Positions 3,763-15,066 of a stretch of DNA of 64,000 bases are shown in pieces. Each line of letters begins with the position of its first letter. Within the stretch, counting starts at the first letter, position 1. The stretch comes from a virus. Its lineage: Duplodnaviria > Caudoviricetes. The translations under genes were made by a program, and so were the position numbers. A model generated the notes under the pieces. It had not been told where the DNA came from. It worked only from the letters and a program-made list of their open reading frames with translations, and did no database searches. The DNA lies in IMG/VR virus record IMGVR_UViG_3300044961_000667; one strand, written 5' to 3'.

Positions 3763-4080
3763 CTACGCGGCCTGGTTTTCAGATTCAAGAGCGTACTCCT
3801 TCAGAGCCAGCTCGACGGCCTCAGCCTGCTGCTCCGAGGTGTGCTGCTTGAAGTGCACCTTTCGCCGGCTGTGGGCGATGAGCTGGTACAGCCGACTGGC
3901 GTGCTGCTTCTCGGCTTTCAGCCGGGCGATCGTGCCAGGCGTGAACTTCTTGAACGTCGGGTCCCAGCTGCCGCTCTCCAGTCGCGGCTGATGCGACTCG
4001 CGGAGAATGCCCTTCAGCATCTTGATCTCCGCCTCGATGTCCTTCCGGTCCTGGTGCAGCTTCTTCAGGTTCAGCTTCAT
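3763..4080 (-). CDS. Hypothetical protein
   Basis: 105-aa ORF with AAGGAG RBS, tightly packed. Confidence 0.65.
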   Translation of the reverse strand: MKLNLKKLHQDRKDIEAEIKMLKGILRESHQPRLESGSWDPTFKKFTPGTIARLKAEKQHASRLYQLIAHSRRKVHFKQHTSEQQAEAVELALKEYALESENQAA

Positions 4081-4093
4081 GGCCTTCTCTCCT

Positions 4094-4420
4094 TCAACGA
4101 AGCAAGGAGAGCCGCCCGAGCGCCCTCCTCACGGTGGGGGTTCGGACGGTGGGCACGATGCCCAACGCCATGAGCGCGCCGTTGAAGGGCGCGTCGGGCT
4201 CTCTGATGGCTGTGTGCGGGATGCCGAGACGCTGAAGCTCGGCTTCGAGCCGAAGCAGCTCCTCCTCGTCGGAGACGGCAAGAGCAACAGCTCTGGTACT
4301 CGGGGGGACTTGCTCGCGGACGGACTCGCCGGCCGCGTGAATCGTCTGGGCAACCTGCACCCCTGGGGGCAGGTCTCGCCTCAAGACGACGTAGTGGTAC
4401 AGCGGCTCTTCGTTACAGCA
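4094..4420 (-). CDS. Peptidyl-tRNA hydrolase PTH2-like protein (no canonical start before the conserved N-terminal motif)
   Basis: PLYHYVVLRRDLPPGVQVAQTIHAAGE…ALAVSDEEEL…IREPD…LMALGIVP…LGRLSLLR. Confidence 0.75.
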   Translation of the reverse strand, partial: CCNEEPLYHYVVLRRDLPPGVQVAQTIHAAGESVREQVPPSTRAVALAVSDEEELLRLEAELQRLGIPHTAIREPDAPFNGALMALGIVPTVRTPTVRRALGRLSLLR

Positions 4421-4451
4421 CTACCTGGCTCAGCGACATGTGCTTCTCCTT

Positions 4452-4979
4452 TCAGCGCCCACGACGGGACTCGAACCCGCTTCGACGACGATGGGTTCTT
4501 TCAGCATGGCAGTTGGCACAAACAACCTCGCACTTCGCCAACTCCATTCTCACATCTTCCTCTGAACGGGCGTGGTTGACCATCCTCGACACGTCGTCTT
4601 GCTTCGTTCCCCTGACGTGATCAAACTGCATCACCCACGGCCCATACTGATGGCCACAGTCCGTACACGGCGTCGTGCTCTTGATCTCGTTGGCGATCTT
4701 GCGAAGCGTTTCACGCTTGATCGACTTGTACGCCCTGTTCTTGTCGACGTACTTCTGGTGATTGGAGCGGTAGTGCTTTCGCGAACCCTTCTGCATGCAC
4801 ACCCGACATCGCGAATGCCGCAGCGTCGGCTTCCTCTTCCAGTTGAAGTCGTCCTCTGACTTGAACCGTTCGCATCCGGAGCACCACTTCTGAACGCCCC
4901 CGGCGGGAATCGAACCCGCAACCCGTTCGCCTGTAGTCGGCGACAGCTCTGCCAGTTGAGCTACGGAAGCATCTTCCAC
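4452..4979 (-). CDS. HNH endonuclease whose reading frame runs through a tRNA-like sequence
   Basis: CSGC/CRVC, PCTDCG…FDHVRG…KCEVVCANCHAERT; the only plausible start (GTG 4979 after GGAG) precedes the tRNA at 4895-4970. Confidence 0.8.
   Translation of the reverse strand: MEDASVAQLAELSPTTGERVAGSIPAGGVQKWCSGCERFKSEDDFNWKRKPTLRHSRCRVCMQKGSRKHYRSNHQKYVDKNRAYKSIKRETLRKIANEIKSTTPCTDCGHQYGPWVMQFDHVRGTKQDDVSRMVNHARSEEDVRMELAKCEVVCANCHAERTHRRRSGFESRRGR
4456..4480 (-). pseudogene. 3' half (T arm + acceptor strand) of a split tRNA
   Basis: GCGGG TTCGAGT CCCGT CGTGGGC G; pairs 6/7 with acceptor strand at 5026-5032. Confidence 0.65.
4895..4970 (-). tRNA. tRNA-like gene with central CTA in a non-canonical anticodon loop
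   Basis: GCTTCCG/CGGGGGC acceptor, GCTC/GAGC D stem, TCGCC-GACTACA-GGCGA, GCGGG-TTCGATT-CCCGC; lacks U33 and purine 37. Confidence 0.6.
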
Positions 4980-4986
4980 ATCATCT

Positions 4987-5032
4987 CCGTCCACCTGTAG
5001 TCGGCGGTTGCTCGCCTATGAGCTACGAGGGC
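4987..5032 (-). pseudogene. 5' half of the split tRNA (same GACTACA loop)
   Basis: GCCCTCG TA GCTC ATAGGC GAGC AA CCGCC GACTACA GGTGG, no T arm follows. Confidence 0.65.
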
Positions 5033-5074
5033 CTGTTCCAACCTGAGGAGATCGTAACTCCTGCAGGAGTTTCG

Positions 5075-5305
5075 TCAAGTGACTGACTGCGCCGGCTCCT
5101 TGCAGTCGATGCAGTAGCCGCACGAGCCGCACCGGTACTTCACCCAAACGCCCTGCACCTTCGACACCCCCGCCGAGCGTCCGTCCTCCTGGCGCGTGAT
5201 GCCAGGCTTCTTGCACTGCGGGCAGATGCCTTGCTTCAGCTTCTCGTCGATCTGCTGACTCCATTCCTGGATGGCAGCGACAACGTCCTGAGGCGGCTCT
5301 TTCAC
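5075..5305 (-). CDS. Small zinc-finger protein
   Basis: CPQC…CGSCGYCIDC; AGGAG RBS. Confidence 0.6.
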   Translation of the reverse strand: MKEPPQDVVAAIQEWSQQIDEKLKQGICPQCKKPGITRQEDGRSAGVSKVQGVWVKYRCGSCGYCIDCKEPAQSVT

Positions 5306-5320
5306 TTCTCCTCCGTACCA

Positions 5321-5700
5321 TGGAGCTGCGGGGAATCGAACCCCGGTCCGAAAGCCTTCAGTCCTTCGACTCTACGTGCGTAGCCGCTGTCACCGCGGCC
5401 GAGTCCTGCTGCCCGCTGGTCTTTCCCCGCATTCGCCGAGCGGACTGGGCGGGGGCAACTCCTGGGTGGGTTTCGCCTCGCCAGCTACGCAGGAGCGCCT
5501 CGCTGGTTCGACGGAGAGCTAAGACTTTCGGTCCGCTCTCAAGCCCTGATCAGGGCAACCGCTCACGCGGCTGCGAGCATCGGGGCCGCCTCGACGTTGT
5601 CGTTGGCGGTTGTGGTTTCTCACTGGGATTTACGAGCACAGCGAGCTGCTCGGCACGCATCTCAGGTCGTCTTTGCCCCCGTCGAATCCAGTTCAGCCCC
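5321..5700 (-). ncRNA. ssrA: tmRNA, tag peptide ANDNVEAAPMLAAA
   Basis: 5' GGGGCTGAACTGGATTCGAC, 3' GGACCGGGGTTCGATTCCCCGCAGCTCCA; tag frame 5563-5607. Confidence 0.93.
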
Positions 5701-6080
5701 GTTCACTGCTTCCTTCAAGCAACGGCGATAGGCGCCCGTGCCGAACATCCGGTCGGTGCGCCCAACGCAGGGAGTTGTGGTCCCCCGCATCGCCGTCCTC
5801 ATCATCTCGCGCGTCGGTGTCGCCTGCACTTTTCGCACTGGCCCGTGCTGTCGAACACGCACAGCTCCTGATTCACACCGCATCCCACGTACTGCGCGAC
5901 CGAGTCGACGCGGAGCTGGGCTTCGTGGCCGCTCTCACGCGAGTCCGCTGCTCTCTGCGACTGCTCGTTCTGCGTCATGGGGGTGCGCCTTCTGTTCTTG
6001 GTCGAACTGACTGTCAAGATCATCAATGACACCAGTGGACAGTGTTCGTCAAGGGGAACCGGACAGCAGCGACAGTTTCT

Positions 6081-6146
6081 CGACCCGTCCAGGAGTCGAA
6101 CCCAGCACCACGCCCTTAGAAGGGGCCGGCGGATCCATCACGGGCC
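6081..6146 (-). tRNA. tRNA-Arg(TCT), truncated D arm
   Basis: GGCCCGT/ACGGGTC acceptor, CTTCTAA loop, T arm; only 66 nt. Confidence 0.55.
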
Positions 6147-6159
6147 TCAACAACAACAG

Positions 6160-6244
6160 CGGAGCGCCCGAGAGTCGAACTCGGCTGACCCGTGAAGGTC
6201 GTCGCGTTAGCAGTGCGATGCCGTCCCACGCTGGCTCACGCTCC
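6160..6244 (-). tRNA. tRNA-Ser(GCT)
   Basis: Cloverleaf, CTGCTAA loop, long variable arm. Confidence 0.85.
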
Positions 6245-6247
6245 ATG

Positions 6248-6335
6248 CGGAAAAGGCGAGAGTCGAACTCGCAGACCGCCCGAAGACGATCGTCCGCTTT
6301 CCAAGCGGGTGGGCTCACCAGTGCCCAGCTTCTCC
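6248..6335 (-). tRNA. tRNA-Ser(GGA)
   Basis: TTGGAAA loop, long variable arm. Confidence 0.85.
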
Positions 6336-6338
6336 ATG

Positions 6339-6427
6339 CGGAGCGGGTCCGAGTCGAACGGACAGCCCGCCTTTCGACGAGCAAGCGCTTTCGAGACGCT
6401 CTGACTTGCCTGTGTGCAAACCGCTCC
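6339..6427 (-). tRNA. tRNA-Ser(CGA)
   Basis: CTCGAAA loop, long variable arm. Confidence 0.85.
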
Positions 6428-6523
6428 AGAAACACCCTCAGATGACCGCCTGAGGGGCGCGGGGGCCTGTTGGCCGAGATGCCCCTAGCTGTCGCCAGTT
6501 CGTGAGCGTCTCGGGACGGCTTG

Positions 6524-6610
6524 CGGAAGACGGAGGACTCGAACCCCACACCCACTCGGGGTGCCGACCGCTTTCAAGGCGGGCCAGCGTCCATCACTGG
6601 TTCATCTTCC
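6524..6610 (-). tRNA. tRNA-Ser(TGA)
   Basis: CTTGAAA loop, long variable arm. Confidence 0.85.
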
Positions 6611-6611
6611 A

Positions 6612-6941
6612 TCACTGCGATCGCGGCTGATCGGCGTTCCAGACGGAGCGGCCCATCGCTCCCTCATCGGCCTCAGCGTTCTTCAACATCGAGTAGTAGT
6701 CCGGTCGCTCCTTCAGGTGCGCCCAGGCGATCTTCCCGATGTCGAGCAGGTCGTCAACCACGTCGGTCTCCGGGTCGACGTCATGCTCCGACTCAACCCC
6801 GAGACCGGCCGCGAACTCTCCGAGGTCGACCTGGCTCCAGTCGATCCCCAGCTGGTCGCCAACCCACTTCGCCAGCTCAGGGCTCCATGCCGGCGCCTCG
6901 CCGACCTCTTCCTTCAGCTGCCTGACGAGCTTCCTGAGCAT
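6612..6941 (-). CDS. DUF5661-like protein
   Basis: GLGVESEH…DD…KIAWAHLKERPDYYSML motif. Confidence 0.7.
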   Translation of the reverse strand: MLRKLVRQLKEEVGEAPAWSPELAKWVGDQLGIDWSQVDLGEFAAGLGVESEHDVDPETDVVDDLLDIGKIAWAHLKERPDYYSMLKNAEADEGAMGRSVWNADQPRSQ

Positions 6942-6981
6942 GCGGTGGCCTCCGGGCGCACAGTACACCCAGAGGCCACCC

Positions 6982-7524
6982 TCAGTCTTCCAGCTCGGTG
7001 TTCCAGTACGCCACCGAGGCGAGCCACTGCTTCCACGGCTCGGGCATGCCCTTCTTCCAGGTGAAGGTGAGCCGCACCGACTCGGGCAACGACTTCGGCT
7101 TCACCGGCACCTGCAGGAGCTTCATGCCTGCCTGCGCTGGCGTCCGACCGCCCTTCTTCTGGTTGCAGGGCGTGCACGACACCACGATGTTCTCCCACGT
7201 CGTGTGGCCGCCCTGCGTGCGCGGGACGACGTGGTCGTACGTGAAGTCGTGCCTGGGCACCTTCGCCGAGCAGTACTGGCACTTGCCCTTGTCTCGCGTG
7301 AAGACGTTCTCGCGACTGAACTTGATCGCCTTCTTCTTGCCGCGGATCGCCCGGAGGAACCGGATCACCGACGGCACCTTGAACTCCAACGTCATCGAGC
7401 GGACGGTCTTGTCCTCGTACTCCTCGACGACTTCCACCTTCTCCTCCCAGAGGAGGGTGATCGCCCGTTGCCAGCTCACGCGGGCAACCGGGGTGTAGCC
7501 AACATCGAGCACCAGCGTTTCCAC
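6982..7524 (-). CDS. HNH endonuclease (McrA-like bacterial family)
   Basis: LVLDVGYTP…SWQRAITLL…PSVIR…FSRENVFTRDKGKCQYC…TYDHVVPRTQGG…WENIVVSCTPCNQKKG. Confidence 0.9.
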   Translation of the reverse strand: METLVLDVGYTPVARVSWQRAITLLWEEKVEVVEEYEDKTVRSMTLEFKVPSVIRFLRAIRGKKKAIKFSRENVFTRDKGKCQYCSAKVPRHDFTYDHVVPRTQGGHTTWENIVVSCTPCNQKKGGRTPAQAGMKLLQVPVKPKSLPESVRLTFTWKKGMPEPWKQWLASVAYWNTELED

Positions 7525-7562
7525 GTTGCCCGTCCTTTCTGCGGCCTTCGCCGCGGTGAGTG

Positions 7563-7647
7563 TAGTCCCGGCCGGACTCGAACCGGCACGGCCTTTGTGG
7601 CCACTGGGGTTTGAGCCCAGCGCGTCTACCGACTCCGCCACGGGACC
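7563..7647 (-). tRNA. tRNA-Leu(CAA)
   Basis: CTGGG-CTCAAAC-CCCAG, long variable arm. Confidence 0.88.
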
Positions 7648-7652
7648 ATCTG

Positions 7653-7741
7653 TGCTCGGGGCGAGACTCGAACTCGCATGAGGCTTTCGCCCCACCGGCT
7701 TCTGAGGCCGGCGTGTCTACCGAAGGTTCCACCACCCGAGC
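7653..7741 (-). tRNA. tRNA-Leu(CAG)
   Basis: CCGGC-CTCAGAA-GCCGG. Confidence 0.88.
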
Positions 7742-7752
7742 ATGCACTTCAG

Positions 7753-7839
7753 TGGTCCGGGCGAGAGTCGAACTCGCATGATCTTTCGATCGGCAGGCTC
7801 TCAACCTGCTGTGTCTACCGGAGGTTCCACCACCGGACC
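7753..7839 (-). tRNA. tRNA-Leu(GAG)
   Basis: GCAGG-TTGAGAG-CCTGC. Confidence 0.88.
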
Positions 7840-7843
7840 AAAG

Positions 7844-7916
7844 TACCCGCTCTCGGAATCGAACCGAGCCCTCCGCCTTGTGAAAACGGCGCTCTCACCA
7901 GTTGAGCTACGCGGGC
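7844..7916 (-). tRNA. tRNA-Val(CAC)
   Basis: CCGTT-TTCACAA-GGCGG. Confidence 0.82.
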
Positions 7917-7920
7917 ATGT

Positions 7921-7990
7921 CGTGAGCCTGGGAGTCGAACCCAGCTGGGCGGATTATGAGACCGCTGCCTTCCCTCGATGGCTTGCTCAC
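7921..7990 (-). tRNA. tRNA(CAT), Met or Ile2
   Basis: GCGGT-CTCATAA-TCCGC. Confidence 0.75.
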
Positions 7991-7994
7991 GGAG

Positions 7995-8067
7995 TAGCAG
8001 GGGCTGGGATCGAACCAGCGTTCTCCAGGTTATGAGCCTGGCGAGATGACCTCTTCTCCACCCTGCA
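7995..8067 (-). tRNA. tRNA-Met(CAT), initiator-like (1:72 mismatch)
   Basis: TGCAGGG/CCCTGCT, CCAGG-CTCATAA-CCTGG. Confidence 0.8.
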
Positions 8068-8068
8068 G

Positions 8069-8142
8069 TACTCCCGGAGGGACTCGAACCCCCAGCCTCT
8101 TCGTTCGTAGCGAAGCGATCTGATCCGTTGATCTACGGGAGC
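8069..8142 (-). tRNA. tRNA-Arg(ACG)
   Basis: CTTCG-CTACGAA-CGAAG. Confidence 0.88.
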
Positions 8143-8154
8143 ATCAAACAACAG

Positions 8155-8228
8155 CGGTCTCGGCGGGACTCGAACCCGCGGCCTTTCGCTTCGGAGGCGA
8201 ACGCTCTCATCCACTGAGCTACGAGACC
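8155..8228 (-). tRNA. tRNA-Arg(CCG)
   Basis: TTCGC-CTCCGAA-GCGAA. Confidence 0.9.
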
Positions 8229-8230
8229 AG

Positions 8231-8303
8231 CGTTCCCGGAGGGACTCGAACCCCCGACTTCTCCGTTAGGACCGGAGCACTCTTCCAACTGAGCTACGGG
8301 AAC
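8231..8303 (-). tRNA. tRNA-Arg(CCT)
   Basis: CTCCG-GTCCTAA-CGGAG. Confidence 0.85.
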
Positions 8304-8309
8304 ATCCTG

Positions 8310-8380
<71 letters not shown>

Positions 8381-8779
8381 TCAACCAACCACGTACTTCT
8401 CAGCCAACTTCACACCGGACTTCTGACCGTTCTTGGCAGGCTCGACCCGAAGCTGCCCGCCAACGGCCCCAACCTCCTCGACCGGGACCAGATACACCGC
8501 ATCCAACTCTGGGCAGTGGACGCCGAAGAACTCGACCTCACCGCGGTACGACTTTCTCCCAGTCCCTCGGTGAGCCGAGTTGCTGCTGGTGTCGAAGACA
8601 ACCGCTCCATTCTTGAGCCGCCCAGTCTTGCACTGCACTCGCTGGAACCCGGCATCAGTGTCGATCACCAGGTCGTAGCGCTGGTTCTCTCCAATCGGGA
8701 GCAGCACCGTCCTCCCGGTCTTGAGCAACGCCGCCATCACCGCACCCTCTGTTCTCGTCCCCTGCGCCTTGGTGTTCAT
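8381..8779 (-). CDS. PD-(D/E)XK endonuclease (I-Ssp6803I / PDDEXK_5-like)
   Basis: G..TE…PIGENQRYDLVID…FQRVQCKTGR…YRGEVEFFGVHCPELDAVYLVP. Confidence 0.85.
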   Translation of the reverse strand: MNTKAQGTRTEGAVMAALLKTGRTVLLPIGENQRYDLVIDTDAGFQRVQCKTGRLKNGAVVFDTSSNSAHRGTGRKSYRGEVEFFGVHCPELDAVYLVPVEEVGAVGGQLRVEPAKNGQKSGVKLAEKYVVG

Positions 8780-8799
8780 GCTCCACATCTACCACACCG

Positions 8800-8841
8800 C
8801 TCGGACACCAGCCGAGTGCTCTGCCTTCGAGCTGCGGGGGC
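8800..8841 (-). pseudogene. 5' remnant of tRNA-Thr(GGT)
   Basis: GCCCCCG CA GCTC GAAGGCA GAGC A CTCGG CTGGTGT CCGAG, no T arm. Confidence 0.7.
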
Positions 8842-8845
8842 GCTG

Positions 8846-8918
8846 TGGATCTGGCCGGACTCGAACCGGCAACCTTCTGCGTGCAAAGCAGCCGCTCTCC
8901 CATTGGAGCTACAGACCC
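8846..8918 (-). tRNA. tRNA-Ala(TGC)
   Basis: TTTGCAC loop, G3-U70. Confidence 0.88.
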
Positions 8919-8923
8919 TTCAG

Positions 8924-8996
8924 TGGAACCGGCGGGACTTGAACCCGCCACCTCTCGCATGCGAAGCGAGCGCTCTCCCAGATGAGCTACGGCCCC
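8924..8996 (-). tRNA. tRNA-Ala(CGC)
   Basis: CTCGC-TTCGCAT-GCGAG. Confidence 0.88.
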
Positions 8997-9001
8997 AGGT
9001 G

Positions 9002-9072
9002 TGCGCGAGCAGGGAGTCGAACCCTGTCGTCTCCCGCGTCGGGGGAGTGCTCTACCGGTGAGCTACACGCGC
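9002..9072 (-). tRNA. tRNA-Val(GAC) with C33
   Basis: CTCCC-CCGACGC-GGGAG. Confidence 0.75.
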
Positions 9073-9161
9073 ATGGGCAGGCGGTGCTTTCGCCGAGCTG
9101 CCAGCAGTCACCACGTTCGTGACCCCGGCCCTGCTCGGTAGACTGCCACCTCTCCTGCTTG

Positions 9162-9234
9162 TGGACCCGGCGGGGATCGAACCCGCTACCTCTCGCATGC
9201 CATGCGAGCGCTCTCCCAAGTGAGCTACAGGCCC
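9162..9234 (-). tRNA. tRNA-Ala(GGC)
   Basis: CTCGC-ATGGCAT-GCGAG. Confidence 0.88.
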
Positions 9235-9326
9235 TAAGCGAGGCAGTTCGTAACGCTGCCTGCCCGGCTTTCCACCGGCGCGGGTTGATCAGACCCACGA
9301 GACTTGCCCGGAGCGACCGGGCCATG

Positions 9327-9399
9327 TGCCGTCCCTCGGAATCGAACCGAGATCCTCCGCTCTTCAGGCGGGTGCATGGACCACCACTGCCAAGACGGC
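9327..9399 (-). tRNA. tRNA-Phe(GAA)
   Basis: CCCGC-CTGAAGA-GCGGA. Confidence 0.82.
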
Positions 9400-9408
9400 G
9401 TACTTCAG

Positions 9409-9480
9409 CGGACCCGAACGGAATCGAACCGTCCTCGCCGGCGTGACAGGCCGGTCGCCTCACCAGATGCGTACGGATCC
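9409..9480 (-). tRNA. tRNA-Asp(GTC)
   Basis: CCGGC-CTGTCAC-GCCGG. Confidence 0.85.
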
Positions 9481-9485
9481 AACAG

Positions 9486-9568
9486 GGCGACTGGAGAGAA
9501 TCGAACTCTCACTGAGCTTTCGCTCGCGGGGTCACAACCCGCTGGGAACCCATTTCCCATCAGCCGCC
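9486..9568 (-). tRNA. tRNA-His(GTG) with long variable arm
   Basis: G-1:C73, GCGGG-TTGTGAC-CCCGC, GAGC-GAAA-GCTC variable hairpin. Confidence 0.8.
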
Positions 9569-9576
9569 AGAAGAAA

Positions 9577-9696
9577 TCTGCTCCACCCGAGTGAGGAAGG
9601 CATGAAACGGGTTTGAACCGTCTGGTCGATTTAGCAGATCGACTGATCACCAAGATCAGTAGTGCGTGTGAGCCATCCTCGGCCGGGTGGTGCAGA
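9577..9696 (-). ncRNA. tRNA-mimic-like structured RNA with extended closing stem
   Basis: D-like, anticodon-like and T-like hairpins closed by about 21 bp of interrupted terminal helix. Confidence 0.5.
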
Positions 9697-9697
9697 G

Positions 9698-9769
9698 TCC
9701 GCCGCAGTGGAATCGAACCACTTGCCTCTCGCTTATCAGGCGAGTGCTCTTCCAGTGAGCTACCGGCGG
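9698..9769 (-). tRNA. tRNA-Ile(GAT)
   Basis: CTCGC-CTGATAA-GCGAG. Confidence 0.82.
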
Positions 9770-9778
9770 GCACGTCAG

Positions 9779-9852
9779 TCAGGGTGGCTGGGATCGAACC
9801 AGCGACCTCCTGCATCCGAAGCAGGCGCGCTACCAGGCTGCGCTACACCCTG
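9779..9852 (-). tRNA. tRNA-Pro(CGG)
   Basis: CCTGC-TTCGGAT-GCAGG. Confidence 0.9.
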
Positions 9853-9862
9853 TTGAGTCAAG

Positions 9863-9899
9863 TCAGGTCGGCTGGGATCGAACCAGCGATCTCCTGCAT
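9863..9899 (-). pseudogene. 3' half of split tRNA-Pro
   Basis: AT GCAGG AGATC GCTGG TTCGATC CCAGC CGACCTG A. Confidence 0.8.
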
Positions 9900-10327
9900 C
9901 ACCAGACGTGGTCACTGGCCAGCAGGATGTTCTTCTTGGCCCCATTCGCGGGGGCCTCCAATCTCACATGCAGGATCGACTTCCCCTGGAACTCCTCAGG
10001 CAGGAAGGCCGTCACCACGTCCATCTCAGGCAGATACACCAGAAGCAGGTCAACCTCCCCGACCTCATACTTCTTGAACGACTTGTTGCTCGGTCCCACC
10101 CACGTCCTCAGAGCCACAGTCGCCACGCCGGACGAATGAGACGACTTGCCGCCTCCATACTTCGCTTGGGCCCGGATCAACCTAACACCATCATCCAGAA
10201 CCAGATCGTACCTGGCATCGGTTGTGGGCCGACTGACGACAAACCCCTTCTCAATCGCCCTCTGCTGCGCCTTCAGCGATGCCACTTCACCCTTCTGCCT
10301 GGTGTCCACTTCTCTTGCGTACCACAC
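9899..10327 (-). CDS. PD-(D/E)XK endonuclease (PDDEXK_5-like)
   Basis: KGEVA…VSRPTTDARYDLVLDDG…RAQAK…YEVGEVDLLLVY; paralogous to 8381-8779. Confidence 0.82.
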   Translation of the reverse strand: MWYAREVDTRQKGEVASLKAQQRAIEKGFVVSRPTTDARYDLVLDDGVRLIRAQAKYGGGKSSHSSGVATVALRTWVGPSNKSFKKYEVGEVDLLLVYLPEMDVVTAFLPEEFQGKSILHVRLEAPANGAKKNILLASDHVW

Positions 10328-10340
10328 AGGAGAACATCTG

Positions 10341-10412
10341 TCGAAGAGACTGGACTCGAACCAGCATCCTCACGGCCCCCAGCCGTGCGCTCCACCATTG
10401 AGCTACTCCTCG
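10341..10412 (-). tRNA. tRNA-Pro(GGG)
   Basis: CGAGGAG/CTCTTCG, CACGG-CTGGGGG-CCGTG. Confidence 0.82.
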
Positions 10413-10417
10413 TCACG

Positions 10418-10452
10418 CCCGAGCAGGCGCGGTACCACTCCGCTACGACCTG
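10418..10452 (-). pseudogene. 5' half of split tRNA-Pro
   Basis: CAGGTCG TA GCGG AGTGGTA CCGC G CCTGC TCGGG; pairs perfectly with 9863-9899. Confidence 0.8.
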
Positions 10453-10456
10453 AAAG

Positions 10457-10528
10457 TCTGGAAGGCGGGGATCGAACCCGCGACCTCTCGCGTCCAAGGC
10501 GAGCGCCCTACCGCTGGACTACTTCCAG
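10457..10528 (-). tRNA. tRNA-Pro(TGG)
   Basis: CTCGC-CTTGGAC-GCGAG. Confidence 0.85.
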
Positions 10529-10532
10529 TTGT

Positions 10533-10544
10533 GCAATCGATTGC
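10533..10544. promoter_or_regulatory. GCAATCGATTGC palindrome copy 3
   Basis: Exact 12-mer, 4 nt upstream of tRNA-Pro(TGG). Confidence 0.7.
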
Positions 10545-10552
10545 GTTCAAAA

Positions 10553-10712
10553 CTGTGCAGTGCGGACTGGCGGTTTGCACCCGCTGCACCGCATTGTCGG
10601 CCTGGCCTCAATAGGCCGCACGGTCCCACGCCGTCGAACGCCAGGACCTGCACCAACCACCGCCATGTTCGACCTGCCAAGCGGTGCCCGTTCATGCCGG
10701 GATGCTGCACAG
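10553..10712 (-). ncRNA. Candidate 160-nt structured RNA
   Basis: CTGTGCAG…CTGCACAG terminal helix followed by TTTT; several internal hairpins. Confidence 0.45.
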
Positions 10713-10784
10713 TACCCCGTACGAGAATCGAACTCGTTTCGCTCGCTTGAAGGGCGAGGGGCCTAACCAATGGCCGAACGGGGC
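10713..10784 (-). tRNA. tRNA-Glu(TTC) with C33
   Basis: CTCGC-CCTTCAA-GCGAG. Confidence 0.8.
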
Positions 10785-11119
10785 TTCTCTGCTCGATCAT
10801 GCGTCCTCTGCCGATGACAGTTGGCGCAGACCACTTCACATTTCTCGATCTCGGCTACGACCTTCTCAGGTCCGACACCGTGCCTCTTGAACTGCCCCAG
10901 GCTGAACTCCTTCCGACCCCTGACGTGATCAAAGTCCATCACCCATGGCGGATAGGCGACACCGCAGTCCGCGCACGGCCTGGACTTGGCTTTGTCGATG
11001 ATCGCCTTGATCGTCTCTTTGTAGGCCGCTGCCGCTCTGATGTACGAGATCTTGTTCTTCTCGTAGTGCCTGCGGCTGTACTCGGCCTGCTTCGACTTCG
11101 ACGGCTCTCTGAGCGGCAT
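10763..11119 (-). CDS. HNH endonuclease (paralog of 4452-4979)
   Basis: PCADCG…WVMDFDHVRG…KCEVVCANCHRQRT; stop lies inside tRNA-Glu. Confidence 0.85.
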   Translation of the reverse strand: MPLREPSKSKQAEYSRRHYEKNKISYIRAAAAYKETIKAIIDKAKSRPCADCGVAYPPWVMDFDHVRGRKEFSLGQFKRHGVGPEKVVAEIEKCEVVCANCHRQRTHDRAEKPRSAIG

Positions 11120-11129
11120 TCTTCGTCAT

Positions 11130-11198
11130 ACCACTTGACGAACCTTTCGTCACTCCACCTTGAAAGGGTGTCGGCCTCACCTGAAGCACCAACGGGGC
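11130..11198 (-). pseudogene. 5' remnant of tRNA-Glu(TTC)
   Basis: GCCCCGT…ACACC CTTTCAA GGTGG then a decayed T arm and no 3' acceptor strand. Confidence 0.7.
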
Positions 11199-11203
11199 TG
11201 AAG

Positions 11204-11274
11204 TACCGCGTACGGGTGTCGAACCCGTCTCACTGGGCTGAGAACCCAGGGACCTCCCGGAAGTCGAACGCGGC
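11204..11274 (-). tRNA. tRNA-Glu(CTC)
   Basis: CTGGG-TTCTCAG-CCCAG. Confidence 0.82.
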
Positions 11275-11280
11275 TTGAAG

Positions 11281-11353
11281 AGGCGGAGGCGGGAGTCGAA
11301 CCCGCTCGATGTCGGTTTTGCAGACCGATGCCTTCCCAGTTGGCTACTCCGCC
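11281..11353 (-). tRNA. tRNA-Cys(GCA)
   Basis: TCGGT-CTGCAAA-ACCGA, U73. Confidence 0.88.
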
Positions 11354-11375
11354 AGGGAAAGACGAGACTGTGCAC

Positions 11376-11732
11376 ATGAAGCGCGTGCTGTGCCTTGATG
11401 ACGACGACATGGTGGCCCGGCTCATCGCCGAGGTGGTCGAGTTCTGCGGACACGAGCCCGTTCGAGAGAGCGACCCGCTGAAGGCTTCCTCGGACCACCT
11501 CCACGACCGGAAGATCGCTGCGGTGCTCACCGACTACATGATGCCTCGCCTCGATGGCGTCGACGTTCTGGTGGTCTGGCAGGAGTCTCGACCCGAGGTG
11601 CGCCGAGTGCTGATCACCGCGGCCCCGAACGAGCCGGCGGTGAAAGAGGCCCTCCGCACCGGCGTCGCTCAGATGGTGATCGCTAAGCCTCCGACGATCG
11701 CCGACATCAAGATGGCCCTGGCCTGGCTCTGA
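11376..11732 (+). CDS. Single-domain response regulator (CheY-like receiver)
   Basis: RVLCLDDD…VLTDYMMPRLDG…VLITAA…IAKP: acidic pair, phospho-Asp, Thr, Lys all present. Confidence 0.9.
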   Translation: MKRVLCLDDDDMVARLIAEVVEFCGHEPVRESDPLKASSDHLHDRKIAAVLTDYMMPRLDGVDVLVVWQESRPEVRRVLITAAPNEPAVKEALRTGVAQMVIAKPPTIADIKMALAWL

Positions 11733-11733
11733 G

Positions 11734-12297
11734 CTACCGCTTCTTCCTCGCCAGTCGCTCCTCCAGCTGCTGAACCGACATCTGGATGGAGTCGTTGATC
11801 GACCGCATCATGTCCTGCCGGAGCTTGTACTCCAGCTCCTGCAGCTTCTTGTCGGAGGCGTCCTTCGACTCCTTCTCGCGCTGGCGGTAGTACTCACCCT
11901 GTTTCTCGATGCGCTGGTCCACCGCCTGCCGGATCTCCGAGACCGTTCCCTTCATGGCCTCGATGGCCGACAGCACCTGCTTCATCTCGGTCTGAACGTT
12001 GCCGACCGACTTGTCGATACCGGCCAGGGCGTCGCTCTGCTCGTCGAACTTGTCGTCGTGCTCGTCGAGCCGCTCTTCGGTCTTCTGCTTGTCCTTGTCC
12101 TCGCGGTCGACCGTCCGCGAGCCCAGCCACTTGACGAAGCCAACGACGGCTCCGATCAACTGGGTGACGACTGCTGCTCCGACCAGCAAGTACAGCCCGG
12201 TCAGCCCGTCACCTGCTGGCGCTGGCGGTGGGGTTGCTGCTGCGGCTCCTGCCGCCGCCGCCGCCGCCGGGCCCGCCGCCAAGATCAACAGGTTCAA
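11734..12297 (-). CDS. Membrane protein with coiled-coil tail (holin-like?)
   Basis: One hydrophobic helix LYLLVGAAVVTQLIGAVVGFVKWL followed by a long charged coiled coil. Confidence 0.6.
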   Translation of the reverse strand: MNLLILAAGPAAAAAAGAAAATPPPAPAGDGLTGLYLLVGAAVVTQLIGAVVGFVKWLGSRTVDREDKDKQKTEERLDEHDDKFDEQSDALAGIDKSVGNVQTEMKQVLSAIEAMKGTVSEIRQAVDQRIEKQGEYYRQREKESKDASDKKLQELEYKLRQDMMRSINDSIQMSVQQLEERLARKKR

Positions 12298-12300
12298 GAA

Positions 12301-12657
12301 CTACTCCTTGCTCGACAGATCGTCGTCGTCGTCGGGCTCTTCAGAGGGCACCGCCGACACCGGAGTCGCTGGCGGGAGGTTCACCTGCAGCTTGGCCGCA
12401 ATGGCGTCCACCACCTTCGACGTGTGCCGGCTTTCCATCTGCATCGACATCATCAGCTTCTCGCCTCGGAGCGTGCGCTCGTCGACATGCTTCACGGCGG
12501 TCTTCAGTGCCGCCAGGTCCTCGCCGAAGCCGGCCATTTTGGACCTCATCTCGTGCATGTCCTCTTCGAGCTTTGCCACTCGCGAGGCCAGGCTGATGGC
12601 CGTCGGCTTCCGCTTTCTTGGGGCCGTACGGAGGCCCCTCCCTCTGGTGTCACGCAA
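12301..12657 (-). CDS. Coiled-coil hypothetical protein
   Basis: Heptad pattern, basic N-terminus, acidic C-terminus. Confidence 0.6.
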   Translation of the reverse strand: MRDTRGRGLRTAPRKRKPTAISLASRVAKLEEDMHEMRSKMAGFGEDLAALKTAVKHVDERTLRGEKLMMSMQMESRHTSKVVDAIAAKLQVNLPPATPVSAVPSEEPDDDDDLSSKE

Positions 12658-12766
12658 AGTCGCTCTCCGAAGAAGCGGTCCACGGTCGTGGTTCTCTCAC
12701 GGCCTGCTGTTGGTTGACTGCTCCATCTTTCGCCCTCTTCTGGGCATCCGTCAACTGTCACTGATG

Positions 12767-12841
12767 CGTACCCTCTCGGAATCGAACCGAGCACCGTCGG
12801 CTTAACAGGCCGCTGCTATCAACCAGACCAGCTCAGGGCAC
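12767..12841 (-). tRNA. tRNA-Asn(GTT)
   Basis: CTGTTAA loop. Confidence 0.75.
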
Positions 12842-12847
12842 ATCGTA

Positions 12848-12918
12848 CTGGGGAGGAAGGGATCGAACCTTCTCCGTCGGCTTCAGAGACCGCTGCGCTA
12901 CCCTTGCGCCACTCCCCA
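12848..12918 (-). tRNA. tRNA-Gln(CTG)
   Basis: CTCTGAA loop, TGGGGAG acceptor. Confidence 0.85.
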
Positions 12919-12930
12919 ATGTCTTTCGCT

Positions 12931-12997
12931 CAGGGGCCCTGGGAATCGAACCCAGCTCGTCGGCTTCAAAGGCCGACTCACTCCCTGAGTACCCCTC
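12931..12997 (-). tRNA. tRNA-Gln(TTG), irregular
   Basis: TCGGC-CTTTGAA-GCCGA; short D region. Confidence 0.6.
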
Positions 12998-13001
12998 CAT
13001 G

Positions 13002-13073
13002 AGCGGGTGGCGAGGATCGAACTCGCGCATCCTGGGTTGGAAGCCCAGAGCCTTTCCGCTTGGCTACACCCGC
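13002..13073 (-). tRNA. tRNA-Gly(TCC)
   Basis: CTGGG-CTTCCAA-CCCAG. Confidence 0.88.
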
Positions 13074-13076
13074 ATG

Positions 13077-13147
13077 TACCGCCGCTGGGGATCGAACCCA
13101 GTCCCTCCGCTTAAAAGGCGGTTGCTCTACCCTTGAGCTACGACGGC
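13077..13147 (-). tRNA. tRNA-Lys(TTT)
   Basis: CTTTTAA loop. Confidence 0.85.
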
Positions 13148-13204
13148 GCGTGGACCTGCGCCGTCGCGTTTCATCTTCGTCTTCATCGTCGTCTCCTTGT
13201 CGAG

Positions 13205-13292
13205 TGGTGGGAAGGCTCGGAGTCGAGCCGAGCTGGGACGCAATGCCACCCGCTTTACAGGCGGGCCACGAGCCCTACGTGTCTACCTTCCC
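13205..13292 (-). tRNA. tRNA-Tyr(GTA), encoded CCA
   Basis: CCCGC-CTGTAAA-GCGGG, long variable arm. Confidence 0.82.
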
Positions 13293-13295
13293 ATG

Positions 13296-13366
13296 AGCGG
13301 CATCCGGGAATCGAACCCGGTTCAGTGGCCTGGCAGACCACGGCCCAACCAATAGACCAATGCCGC
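13296..13366 (-). tRNA. tRNA-Gly(GCC)
   Basis: GTGGT-CTGCCAG-GCCAC. Confidence 0.85.
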
Positions 13367-13448
13367 ATACGGCTTTGTCGCTGACGGCCGCGCAGATCCT
13401 CGTGCGGAATGCACGAAGGACTGAACGTCTGCCGGCGACAGAAGCCAG

Positions 13449-13519
13449 TGGGCCCTGAGGGGATCGAACCCTCTCCTGACGCTTAAGAGGCGCCTGCTCT
13501 ACCCTTGAGCTAAGGACCC
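13449..13519 (-). tRNA. tRNA-Lys(CTT)
   Basis: GGCGC-CTCTTAA-GCGTC. Confidence 0.87.
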
Positions 13520-13569
13520 AGATTCGGCCAGCCCGACTAGACGTCAGACAGGTGGCCGAACTGTCGCTG

Positions 13570-13590
13570 CTATCCAGTTTTCAGAGAACA
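13570..13590 (-). promoter_or_regulatory. boxA-like antitermination site
   Basis: TGTTCTCTGAAAACTGGATAG resembles the rRNA-operon boxA TGTTCTTTGAAAACT. Confidence 0.55.
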
Positions 13591-13599
13591 GAACTGCGA

Positions 13600-13673
13600 A
13601 GCACCAGGTCGGGCTCGAACCGACGACCTGCGGTTTACGAAACCGCTGCTGCTACCTGCTGAGCTACTGGTGC
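13600..13673 (-). tRNA. tRNA-Thr(CGT)
   Basis: GCGGT-TTCGTAA-ACCGC. Confidence 0.87.
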
Positions 13674-13677
13674 ACTG

Positions 13678-13751
13678 CACGGCGAGCAGGAGTCGAACCT
13701 GCAGCGTCGGGTTTTGGAGGCCCGTTCCCTTCCCGTTGGGGACTTCGCCGT
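13678..13751 (-). tRNA. tRNA-Trp(CCA)
   Basis: CTCCAAA loop, G73. Confidence 0.8.
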
Positions 13752-13811
13752 ATACCGTTGTTCCTTTCCTTTTGACGAAACATCCTCTCGAAGACTGACC
13801 TGCGGTGGTGC

Positions 13812-13853
13812 AGAAAAGCGAAAGGCCGGGACCCTTTTGGGGTGCCCGGCCTC
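13812..13853 (-). terminator. Intrinsic terminator-like hairpin ahead of the tRNA array
   Basis: AGGCCGGG…CCCGGCCT followed by TTCGCTTTT. Confidence 0.6.
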
Positions 13854-13879
13854 CGTGAGCGATCCAATGTGCTACTGGA

Positions 13880-14059
13880 TCAGGTTCTCATGGAGCCGGG
13901 CCGTCGGTGGTCGCTGGTACCCAGATTCTGCTCGGGCTGATAGGCGACCACGCTTTCGACGGACCAAAGGCACGAACGCAAAAACGCCGGTCGAGCGGCC
14001 ATGGCCGCCCCGGCGATTCGCTTCGTCAGCGCTTTGGTTGAGGTCGACATCGAAAGCAC
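13880..14059 (-). CDS. Small leader ORF (59 aa)
   Basis: AAGGAG RBS then GTG; lies between a promoter and a terminator. Confidence 0.45.
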   Translation of the reverse strand: MLSMSTSTKALTKRIAGAAMAARPAFLRSCLWSVESVVAYQPEQNLGTSDHRRPGSMRT

Positions 14060-14078
14060 GTGCTCCTTGATGTCCAGC

Positions 14079-14108
14079 AGAGTACCCACCTGACGAATTC
14101 GCCGTCAA
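14079..14108 (-). promoter_or_regulatory. Sigma70-like promoter
   Basis: TTGACG-N18-TACTCT. Confidence 0.55.
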
Positions 14109-14130
14109 GCACCTGACGACGATTCTTCGA

Positions 14131-15066
14131 TCAGTACCAGCCCGCGGGGTTCAACGTCGGGTTGTTCTCGAACGGGTACTGCTCACCGCCACCCTCGTCG
14201 TCATCCTGCCAACCAGGAGCGCCCTGTTCCATCTCCGGGTCGGACTCGATGCTTCGACGAACTTCCTTCTCCATGAAGTCGGCGATCACCGCCATCATCG
14301 CCTCGTCGTCTTCAGCTCCCTGCATCGCGCTCACGAGCGAGCCCTCGTCCGAGTCGGCCTCGACCAGCATCTGGCCGTGGAGCTGGAACGCCTCGACGAA
14401 GTCGATCTTCTTCAGGAAGCTCTGCCACGCATCCCTCGCGTAGTCGGCGACCTTCTCCTTGAACTTGCCGGTGCCGATGTCTCGACCGCGGTAGAAACCC
14501 TTGAGAAAGGTCCTCGCGATCGACTTCGCGATTCCTCCGGCCACGTCGGAGACCTTCTTCTTCTCCTCGGGAGACGGCTTCTTCCCGGCCGCCGCCCCCT
14601 TGAGCGCCTTGGTCGCTTCCTTGGCTGCTTCGGGATTCTTGGCGACAGCCTTGGCAGCGGCCTTCTTCGCGCGGCCCTTGCCCTTCGCGACCTTCGCCTG
14701 ACCAGGGGCTTTCTTCGGGGCCGGCGCCTCGGCATCACCCTTCGGCTTGTCGACCTTGGTGGCCGGCTGCCCCTTCGGCTTCTTCGCGGAACCACCCTTC
14801 TCGGGCACCTTCTCCCAGTCGCCCTCCTTCGTCTTGACGAAGGTGCCCGCCTTGCGCTTCCGCTTCTCACCCGGCTTGGCGACGTTGGTGCCCTGGCCCT
14901 TGCCGGCGGCAGTCTTCGCCACCGACGGCTTGCCCACCGCGGTTCCACCCTTCTTCTGCAGCTGCGAGATCGGGATGAGCACCGGAGACGTCTTCACGTC
15001 GCGCGGGTACGGGCCCTTCTCAACGAGGGAACGCATCTGCTCCACGAGTGAAGAGAGGCTGCTCAC
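14131..15066 (-). CDS. Lys/Ala/Gly-rich histone-H1-like protein with acidic tail
   Basis: AGGAG + GTG; PAKK/AAK repeats; acidic C-terminus after LVE-A. Confidence 0.7.
   Translation of the reverse strand: MSSLSSLVEQMRSLVEKGPYPRDVKTSPVLIPISQLQKKGGTAVGKPSVAKTAAGKGQGTNVAKPGEKRKRKAGTFVKTKEGDWEKVPEKGGSAKKPKGQPATKVDKPKGDAEAPAPKKAPGQAKVAKGKGRAKKAAAKAVAKNPEAAKEATKALKGAAAGKKPSPEEKKKVSDVAGGIAKSIARTFLKGFYRGRDIGTGKFKEKVADYARDAWQSFLKKIDFVEAFQLHGQMLVEADSDEGSLVSAMQGAEDDEAMMAVIADFMEKEVRRSIESDPEMEQGAPGWQDDDEGGGEQYPFENNPTLNPAGWY

Follow-up and report, generated by a model that had tools for sequence, protein, structure and literature searches.

The window (the whole stretch of 64,000 nt analyzed here) derives from an uncultured contractile-tailed phage, as judged from its tail sheath and baseplate wedge genes, with a G+C content of 62–65%. 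Metagenomes containing this phage come from hot-spring or mat, bioreactor, wastewater, and soil samples. A blastn search of phage GenBank returned only generic tRNA-Pro matches, indicating that there is no close isolate. The minus strand of the window carries a tRNA array (4894–13751), in which ARAGORN identified 38 tRNA genes along with one for tmRNA. Four small endonuclease genes lie among the array tRNAs: two HNH paralogs and two PD-(D/E)XK genes (Pfam PF11645). The locus under study contains one of the HNH genes, flanked on one side by a partial tRNA-Glu(UUC) sequence and on the other by a complete tRNA-Glu(UUC) gene (Table 1).

Table 1. Features of the tRNA-Glu(UUC) locus, in window coordinates
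Feature	Position	Strand	Basis and remarks
tRNA-Glu(CUC), upstream neighbor	11203..11274	-	ARAGORN; spacer of 4 nt to the 5′ remnant
5′ remnant of resident-type tRNA-Glu(UUC), 48 nt, about positions 1–48	11151..11198	-	Alignment score 37
Leader hairpin GACGAA-AGG-TTCGTC, 6-bp stem, 3-nt loop	11137..11151	-	MFE fold; 17-nt spacer to the ORF
Predicted hairpin over the HNH start codon, 8 bp	11112..11135	-	MFE and centroid folds
HNH endonuclease gene, ATG start, 118 aa	10763..11119	-	PHROG 2255, PHROG 3106
Intact tRNA-Glu(UUC), C33	10712..10784	-	ARAGORN; Rfam tRNA 52.8 bits

A sequence-only reading had described this locus as a cassette in which a 5′ remnant of tRNA-Glu(UUC), an HNH gene, and an intact replacement tRNA-Glu(UUC) follow one another. 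Its structural details were confirmed. Both copies start with GCCCCGTT (11198–11191 and 10784–10777, minus strand); the remnant has the anticodon loop CTTTCAA on a 4-bp stem (CACC/GGTG), and the intact copy has the loop CCTTCAA on a different stem (CTCGC/GCGAG). The HNH stop codon, said to lie within the new tRNA, is the TAG at 10765–10763, which corresponds to tRNA positions 20–22; the final 22 nt of the ORF (7 codons plus TAG) are the first 22 nt of the intact tRNA-Glu(UUC). The layout as a whole also held, given that the remnant matches an uninterrupted resident-type gene of homologous arrays, and its description as a cassette gained support from a related strain in which the tract diverges on its own and from the same arrangement of HNH homologs beside other tRNAs, as described below. 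Within the 418-nt gap, the HNH gene is the sole long ORF that reads as a gene. No group I or II intron was matched by Rfam in 4000–14200 at E values up to 10, and the functional tRNA is contiguous, with the ORF upstream of and overlapping it, which departs from the organization of an intron-encoded homing endonuclease. The locus does not resemble an integrase-type island either: it has no integrase, the duplicated part is the 5′ part, and no 3′ tRNA remnant was found downstream of the intact tRNA (10529–10711).

The remnant retains the acceptor 5′ strand, the D-arm, the anticodon arm, and the variable-loop sequence AGTG. Its local alignment with the intact tRNA-Glu(UUC) compares with 16.4 ± 3.1 for dinucleotide shuffles (z about 6.6), and the observed score was reached by 0 of 5000 shuffles and by a single one of the 2486 background windows drawn from the same record. 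Among the 39 tRNA genes of the window, tRNA-Glu(UUC) is the best match to the remnant, and the pattern GCCCCGTT-N22-27-CYTTCAA occurs at two sites only, the remnant and the intact copy, against an expectation of 0.00. The upstream stretch might nevertheless resemble a tRNA by chance and not be tRNA-derived, and the Rfam tRNA model indeed did not report the half gene at E values up to 10, as is expected of a fragment. This explanation can practically be discounted in view of the z-score, the register 4 nt after the preceding tRNA, the shared anticodon, and a D-loop identical at 15 of 15 positions to that of the orthologs presented next. Exact-pattern scans of IMG/VR with the remnant, the 3′ end of tRNA-Glu(CUC), and the 5′ part of the intact copy gave 0 matches each.

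Using the final 24 nt of tRNA-Glu(CUC) as a query, we scanned 185,579 species genomes and obtained matches on six Myxococcota MAG contigs (L107–L112), which carry homologous arrays. The order Trp, Gly, ..., Cys, Glu(CUC), Glu(UUC), Pro or Ile, Asp, Phe is common to the MAG arrays and the phage. On five of the six contigs (L107, L108, L109, L111, and L112), an uninterrupted tRNA-Glu(UUC) gene follows tRNA-Glu(CUC), with a spacer of 4 nt in all of them except L112 (12 nt). The remnant is identical to these five genes at 38–40 of 48 nt (79–83%) and shares with them the D-loop GCTTCAGGTGAGGCC and the loop CTTTCAA, and its variable loop likewise fits AG(A/T)G; in the anticodon stem, it differs from them by compensated pairs (29:41 and 30:40). 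The intact copy departs from the resident type in its D-arm, anticodon stem, and variable loop and does not carry GCTTCAGGTGAGGCC. The comparison of the D-loop, anticodon loop, and stem thus identifies the remnant, on sequence grounds, as the 5′ two-thirds of the resident-type gene, orthologous to the uninterrupted tRNA-Glu(UUC) genes, and marks the intact copy as foreign in type over at least its 5′ two-thirds.

All five uninterrupted genes have two non-Watson-Crick inner D-stem pairs (GCGC versus GGCC), as does the remnant. The odd D-stem therefore looks like a conserved trait of the resident-type tRNA, and the idea that the poor D-stem of the remnant reflects decay was weakened. The flanks of the MAG arrays look cellular (Rhs/YD-shell, HATPase, and response regulator genes), and some of their tRNA sequences are identical to those of the phage. 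A comparison of the window with the MAG-array flanks revealed no protein homology, with tRNA-derived matches only. The shared gene order and tRNA sequences of the MAG arrays point to a myxobacterial host and to a tRNA array that host and phage exchange as a unit. On L025, a diverged phage contig that is nevertheless syntenic, tRNA-Glu(UUC) likewise comes after tRNA-Glu(CUC) with no HNH gene in between; its tRNAs are too diverged to tell which Glu copy is ancestral. Its 152-nt gap between the two genes (L025:2897–3048) holds a 48-codon basic ORF in place of the HNH gene.

The array has no complete tRNA-Glu(UUC) gene other than the intact copy. Identity to the resident-type genes is 70–74% in the 5′ part of this copy and 88% in its 3′ part; this 88% likeness from position 48 onward keeps the right-hand junction from being placed. 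We considered whether the locus arose in situ, by a partial tandem duplication of the phage's own tRNA-Glu(UUC) around a pre-existing HNH gene through nuclease-induced breaks or replication slippage, after which the upstream copy decayed, with nothing coming from outside. The first 8 nt are identical in both copies, and the phage endonuclease SegB is reported to yield tandem repeats of a tRNA and truncated segB by way of microhomology that the 5′ end of the tRNA shares with the 3′ end of segB (PMC13096335). However, the remnant and the intact copy are identical at only 31 of 49 nt and differ in their D-arms, self-complementary anticodon stems, and variable loops; the D-loop of the orthologs is found in the remnant and not in the intact copy; and the two copies of the sister Thr cassette are likewise of different sequence types. 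About 37% divergence of duplicates would also take a time that is hard to reconcile with an HNH gene that is intact and under purifying selection. We regard such a duplication as quite unlikely.

The HNH protein matched PHROG 2255 (E 1.2e-27) and PHROG 3106 (E 2.8e-25), both of which are named HNH endonuclease, while none of the Pfam HNH models reached E 0.01, placing this clade outside the HNH families of Pfam. As the sequence-only reading had proposed, it is a paralog of the other HNH protein of the array, encoded at 4452–4880 (49% identity over 100 aa, E 2e-31). More than 550 relatives are present in the databases, almost all unnamed, and the closest one beyond its own cluster is 56% identical. 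HNH nucleases are characterized by a His general base after a beta-hairpin (DH), an Asn, and a metal-binding His, often together with two CxxC zinc pairs. An alignment of 34 members contains the invariant pattern CxDC...DFDH...KCxVVCxNCH, and the protein keeps all of the invariant or nearly invariant residues (C49, C52, D64, H65, C94, C98, N100, C101, and H102); it has no N-terminal zinc-finger extension. The AF2 model has a pLDDT of 90.4, and its top Foldseek matches are mostly HNH domains (Cap5, Cas9 HNH, Gme HNH, and T4 endonuclease VII), of which the best has an E value of only 0.31. No sequence match was found in the PDB, and the clade has no solved structure.

Three near-identical contigs, found through an exact match to the CheY-like neighbor protein, are occupied by the cassette, with 0 differences in L021 and L022 and 3 in 671 nt in L023. 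Among the near-identical phages, namely, these three and the bioreactor strain X10, the search turned up only occupied alleles, and no contig joined across the cassette in four sequencing runs that showed partial shares of it. The low shares in these four runs were considered as a sign of cassette-free alleles and rejected, as they reflect fragmented coverage; stretches lacking coverage count neither for nor against such alleles. Among more distant contigs, the gene table of P0006 (CheY-like ortholog 76% identical) lists a NADAR gene at the place expected for the tRNA array, that of P0009 (67%) shows no gap large enough for an array, and L024 has no tRNAs. The insertion is accordingly inferred from the more distant orthologs in the MAG arrays, at the identity to the remnant given above.

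Strain X10 covers 10486–11436 with 36 differences in 951 nt. Thirty-three of them fall between 10742 (tRNA position 43) and 11145 (the loop of the leader hairpin; binomial P 8e-10), with none in the remnant, tRNA-Glu(CUC), or tRNA-Cys and less than 1% in the flanking non-coding DNA. The HNH gene has 22 synonymous and 7 non-synonymous differences (dS 0.36, dN/dS 0.07). The two differences in the intact tRNA form a compensatory change from C27:G43 to U27:A43, with C33 kept, and both changes in the leader hairpin (11143 and 11145) are in its 3-nt loop, so that the 6-bp stem is kept. The low dN/dS and the compensatory tRNA pair indicate that both the HNH gene and the tRNA are under purifying selection, and by these signatures both are functional. 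Since the differences are confined to 10742–11145, the cassette behaves as a separate evolutionary unit: the tract consisting of the hairpin, the HNH gene, and tRNA positions 1–43 or more evidently has a history of its own. The X10 tract could have arisen when a diverged cassette displaced the resident allele, or by an independent homing event. The same pattern could also be produced by ordinary recombination with a diverged co-infecting phage, that is, by a process that is not nuclease-driven homing.

The leader hairpin constitutes the left edge of the tract that diverges in X10. Its start, ACGA..GGTTCG, is nearer to the T-arm start of the intact copy (ACGAG-TTCG) than to that of the resident type (GCGGG-TTCG). 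It may therefore be a decayed T-arm piece of the donor's own remnant, and this likeness would fit a donor that already had the fragment-HNH-tRNA layout. The second predicted hairpin pairs the start codon (AUGCCGCU) with AGUGGUAU and has the purine-rich GACGAAGA in its loop; this structure is a possible translational brake according to the fold models. The whole leader folded no better than shuffles (z-score −0.73).

The two PD-(D/E)XK cassettes of the window are missing from L023, which has uninterrupted tRNA-Thr(GGT) and tRNA-Pro(GGG) genes instead. The Pro(GGG) gene (L023:3005–3077) equals the two stranded halves in the window (9862–10452) joined together, with C33 in the loop TCGGGAT. The Thr(GGT) gene (L023:1812–1883) corresponds to positions 1–29 of the Thr fragment of the window followed by positions 27–76 of the intact Thr copy (window 8309–8841); in this cassette too, the two tRNA copies are of different sequence types. 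Such chimeric junctions fit break repair in which the fragment pairs with the left end of the break and the intact copy serves the right end. The L023 Thr allele may equally represent loss of the cassette through recombination between the repeats; the repeats are recombination substrates whether the cassette is gained or lost.

To see the cassette in the context of its family, we collected 100 loci with HNH homologs (20 from IMG/VR and 80 from JGI metagenomes). A tRNA was present within the short flanks of 73 of them, and in 40 a same-strand tRNA starts between −52 and +21 nt from the ORF stop, with the stop inside the tRNA in 36. Offsets of −9, −14, and −22 between the stop and the tRNA recur. 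A 5′ tRNA fragment of the same anticodon lies upstream of the ORF in 8 of the 38 testable cases, the present cassette included; besides Glu(UUC) in the window, these are Arg-TCT (L083), Arg-ACG (L063 and L001), Phe (L099), Thr-TGT (L004), Trp (L053), and Gly (L014). The fragments end at tRNA positions 38–49. A recognizable remnant was missing in the other 30 testable cases. The HNH tree follows tRNA identity, with 24 changes versus a shuffle mean of 31.6 and 0 of 300 shuffles as low, a signal that is inflated by near-duplicate loci. Across these loci, the sequences show that the layout recurs in the HNH family.

We consider it probable that a free-standing HNH homing-endonuclease cassette inserted into the phage's tRNA-Glu(UUC) gene long ago and has become fixed there. 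In this insertion, the first ~48 nt of the resident gene would have been stranded upstream as a pseudogene, while the cassette would have brought the leader, the HNH gene, and a new tRNA 5′ part fused to the 3′ end of the ORF. The new part would span at least positions 1–47 and possibly the whole gene. The phage would thereby keep one working tRNA-Glu(UUC) with no intron or splicing; the HNH cassette seems to occupy an RNA gene by supplying a substitute for it, not by splicing out. The nuclease would cut cassette-free tRNA-Glu(UUC) genes of co-infecting relatives, presumably between the 3′ side of the anticodon loop and the T-loop, and the break would be repaired on the occupied allele, with its left end pairing with the remnant and its right end with the intact copy, so that the two copies would serve as homology arms. 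Because the two copies belong to different sequence types, the original target would no longer be present in the occupied allele, which would be immune. The HNH gene is probably expressed from the polycistronic transcript of the array; a promoter and terminator scan of the minus strand found nothing. Expression may be limited by the start-codon hairpin, and RNase P cleavage at the tRNA 5′ end may remove the last 7 codons and the stop codon of the ORF. Taken together, homing is the likely mechanism on the present sequence evidence. The resident-type orthologs, the cassette-limited divergence, and the family statistics are what the present analysis newly adds.

The sequence-only reading had further raised the question of whether the loop change of the intact copy, C33, confers resistance to the nuclease. 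The comparison with other tRNAs did not support this idea: C33 is unusual, but it is also found in tRNA-Val(GAC), which has no adjacent endonuclease gene, and in the resident, cassette-free tRNA-Pro(GGG) of the sister strain L023. C33 is thus not attributable to the cassette, and we ruled it out as a cassette-specific determinant of immunity. Altered anticodon loops of phage tRNAs have been proposed as a means to evade host nucleases (PMC10264068), and C33 may alternatively serve in the evasion of host anticodon nucleases.

This alternative is one element of a broader explanation, in which the HNH gene is a domesticated module that serves the phage through recombination or amplification of tRNA genes under defence pressure, the fragment has a function as RNA (for example, as a processing signal or as a UUC decoy for a host anticodon nuclease), and the working tRNA evades the nuclease via C33. 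The cassette is fixed, the fragment is unchanged in all near relatives, the HNH gene is under purifying selection, and C33 is kept in X10, all of which would be expected of such a module, as would the proposal of nuclease evasion just cited. In addition, SegB is reported to benefit its own phage (PMC13096335). However, a background of less than 1% already predicts 0 changes in 48 nt, and the conservation of the fragment is therefore uninformative; the leader does not fold better than shuffles; the fragments of other family members vary in end position and decay; and C33 is not tied to cassettes. Domestication appears unlikely, and it would moreover be compatible with a homing origin.

The usual view is that homing endonucleases persist in essential genes inside introns or inteins, or else lie between genes. 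The cassette and its relatives point to a third route for RNA genes, in which the gene is broken and a diverged substitute for the broken part is brought in. Related solutions are found in other systems. I-Ssp6803I is a PD-(D/E)XK homing endonuclease of a tRNA-fMet group I intron and belongs to a family (Pfam PF11645) that also supplies the two sister cassettes of the array. Its target is a tRNA gene as well, but it resides in a self-splicing intron, so that the gene is restored at the RNA level, whereas here a part of the gene is duplicated at the DNA level and the nuclease has another fold. Free-standing homing endonuclease genes of fungal mitochondria bring a duplicate end of the host gene and leave a pseudogene fragment, and thus likewise keep the invaded gene functional by a replacement segment; they differ in that they invade organellar protein-coding genes, form in-frame fusions, and encode LAGLIDADG or GIY-YIG enzymes. 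Integrative elements in tRNA and tmRNA genes also resemble the cassette, since the incoming DNA copies the displaced part of the gene, the gene still works, and the partial copy is left as a scar. However, they use an integrase, replace the 3′ end, and have identical att cores, whereas the cassette has no integrase, is a unit of about 400 nt, duplicates the 5′ part, and carries strongly diverged copies.

Among known systems, SegB of phages T4/T6 comes closest. It is a free-standing GIY-YIG homing endonuclease whose gene lies in a tRNA cluster and is transcribed together with the tRNAs; it cuts tRNA genes at a T-loop motif and drives the inheritance and amplification of neighboring tRNAs. Two brakes on segB have already been proposed, a start-codon hairpin and the severing of the stop codon when the tRNA that follows is matured (PMC2330249, PMC13096335). 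SegB and the present HNH protein are alike in that each is encoded by a free-standing gene in a phage tRNA array, with an ORF end that abuts or overlaps the next tRNA. They differ in enzyme family (GIY-YIG versus HNH, PHROG 2255) and in that the activity of SegB has been demonstrated, whereas the HNH of the cassette is known from its sequence; the available text describes neither a stranded target fragment nor a diverged replacement beside segB. HNH genes are also found in the tRNA arrays of mycobacteriophages, mycobacteria, and cyanobacteria (PMC5966550, PMC8421152), and a role in shaping the tRNA repertoire has been proposed for those of cluster M phages (PMC5966550, citing Pope 2014). Processing of the transcript is thought to lower the expression of HNH genes in tRNA arrays (PMC2330249, discussion section). 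These mycobacteriophage-type genes likewise lie within tRNA arrays, and the remnant-plus-replacement layout goes unmentioned in the same texts. In the accessible literature on SegB and tRNA-array HNH genes as a whole, we found no description of a stranded fragment combined with a diverged replacement.

On a broader scale, the order partial tRNA, endonuclease, tRNA may be more than a scar, namely, the active state of a general strategy for colonizing RNA genes without introns, used by at least two unrelated folds (the HNH clade and the I-Ssp6803I-like PD-(D/E)XK family). The diverged 5′ copies would act at once as homology arms, as immunity, and as a guarantee of a working tRNA, and rival cassette alleles would displace each other at occupied sites, as suggested by the X10 tract. 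We hold this generalization tentatively, regarding it as plausible without leaning toward it. The third route for RNA genes would explain the abundance of nuclease genes in phage and bacterial tRNA arrays, the gain of xenologous tRNAs and tRNA pseudogene pieces by arrays, and the odd or half tRNAs that tRNA finders report beside HNH genes. If the HNH clade recognizes tRNA genes specifically, it would be a source of new sequence-specific nucleases; for this 118-aa enzyme, the sequences of the presumed target (the resident-type gene) and of presumed immune alleles are available.

Several further features of the array were observed. U33 is absent from three array tRNAs: tRNA-Val(GAC) (9001–9072) and tRNA-Glu(UUC) have C33, and a tRNA at 4894–4971, called Pyl(CTA) by ARAGORN, has the loop GACTACA (A33, C37). 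A tRNA at 7753–7839 on the minus strand scored 44 bits with Rfam and was missed by ARAGORN; conversely, the ARAGORN tRNAs tRNA-Glu(CUC), two Ser, and Tyr are absent from the cmscan list. The 183-nt stretch between tRNA-Glu(UUC) and tRNA-Pro(UGG) (10529–10711) contains no plausible gene or tRNA fragment and has a single difference in strain X10. A gene for a stand-alone CheY-like receiver lies mid-array on the opposite strand (11376–11732). Its orthologs, 46–76% identical, are found on many other contigs, mostly metagenomic, and their neighbors vary among the contigs inspected; a 187-aa neighbor protein had no relatives in IMG/VR. The phage also encodes a tmRNA of its own (5318–5700, Rfam 123.6 bits), which would be relevant if tRNA maturation strips the stop codon from the HNH message.
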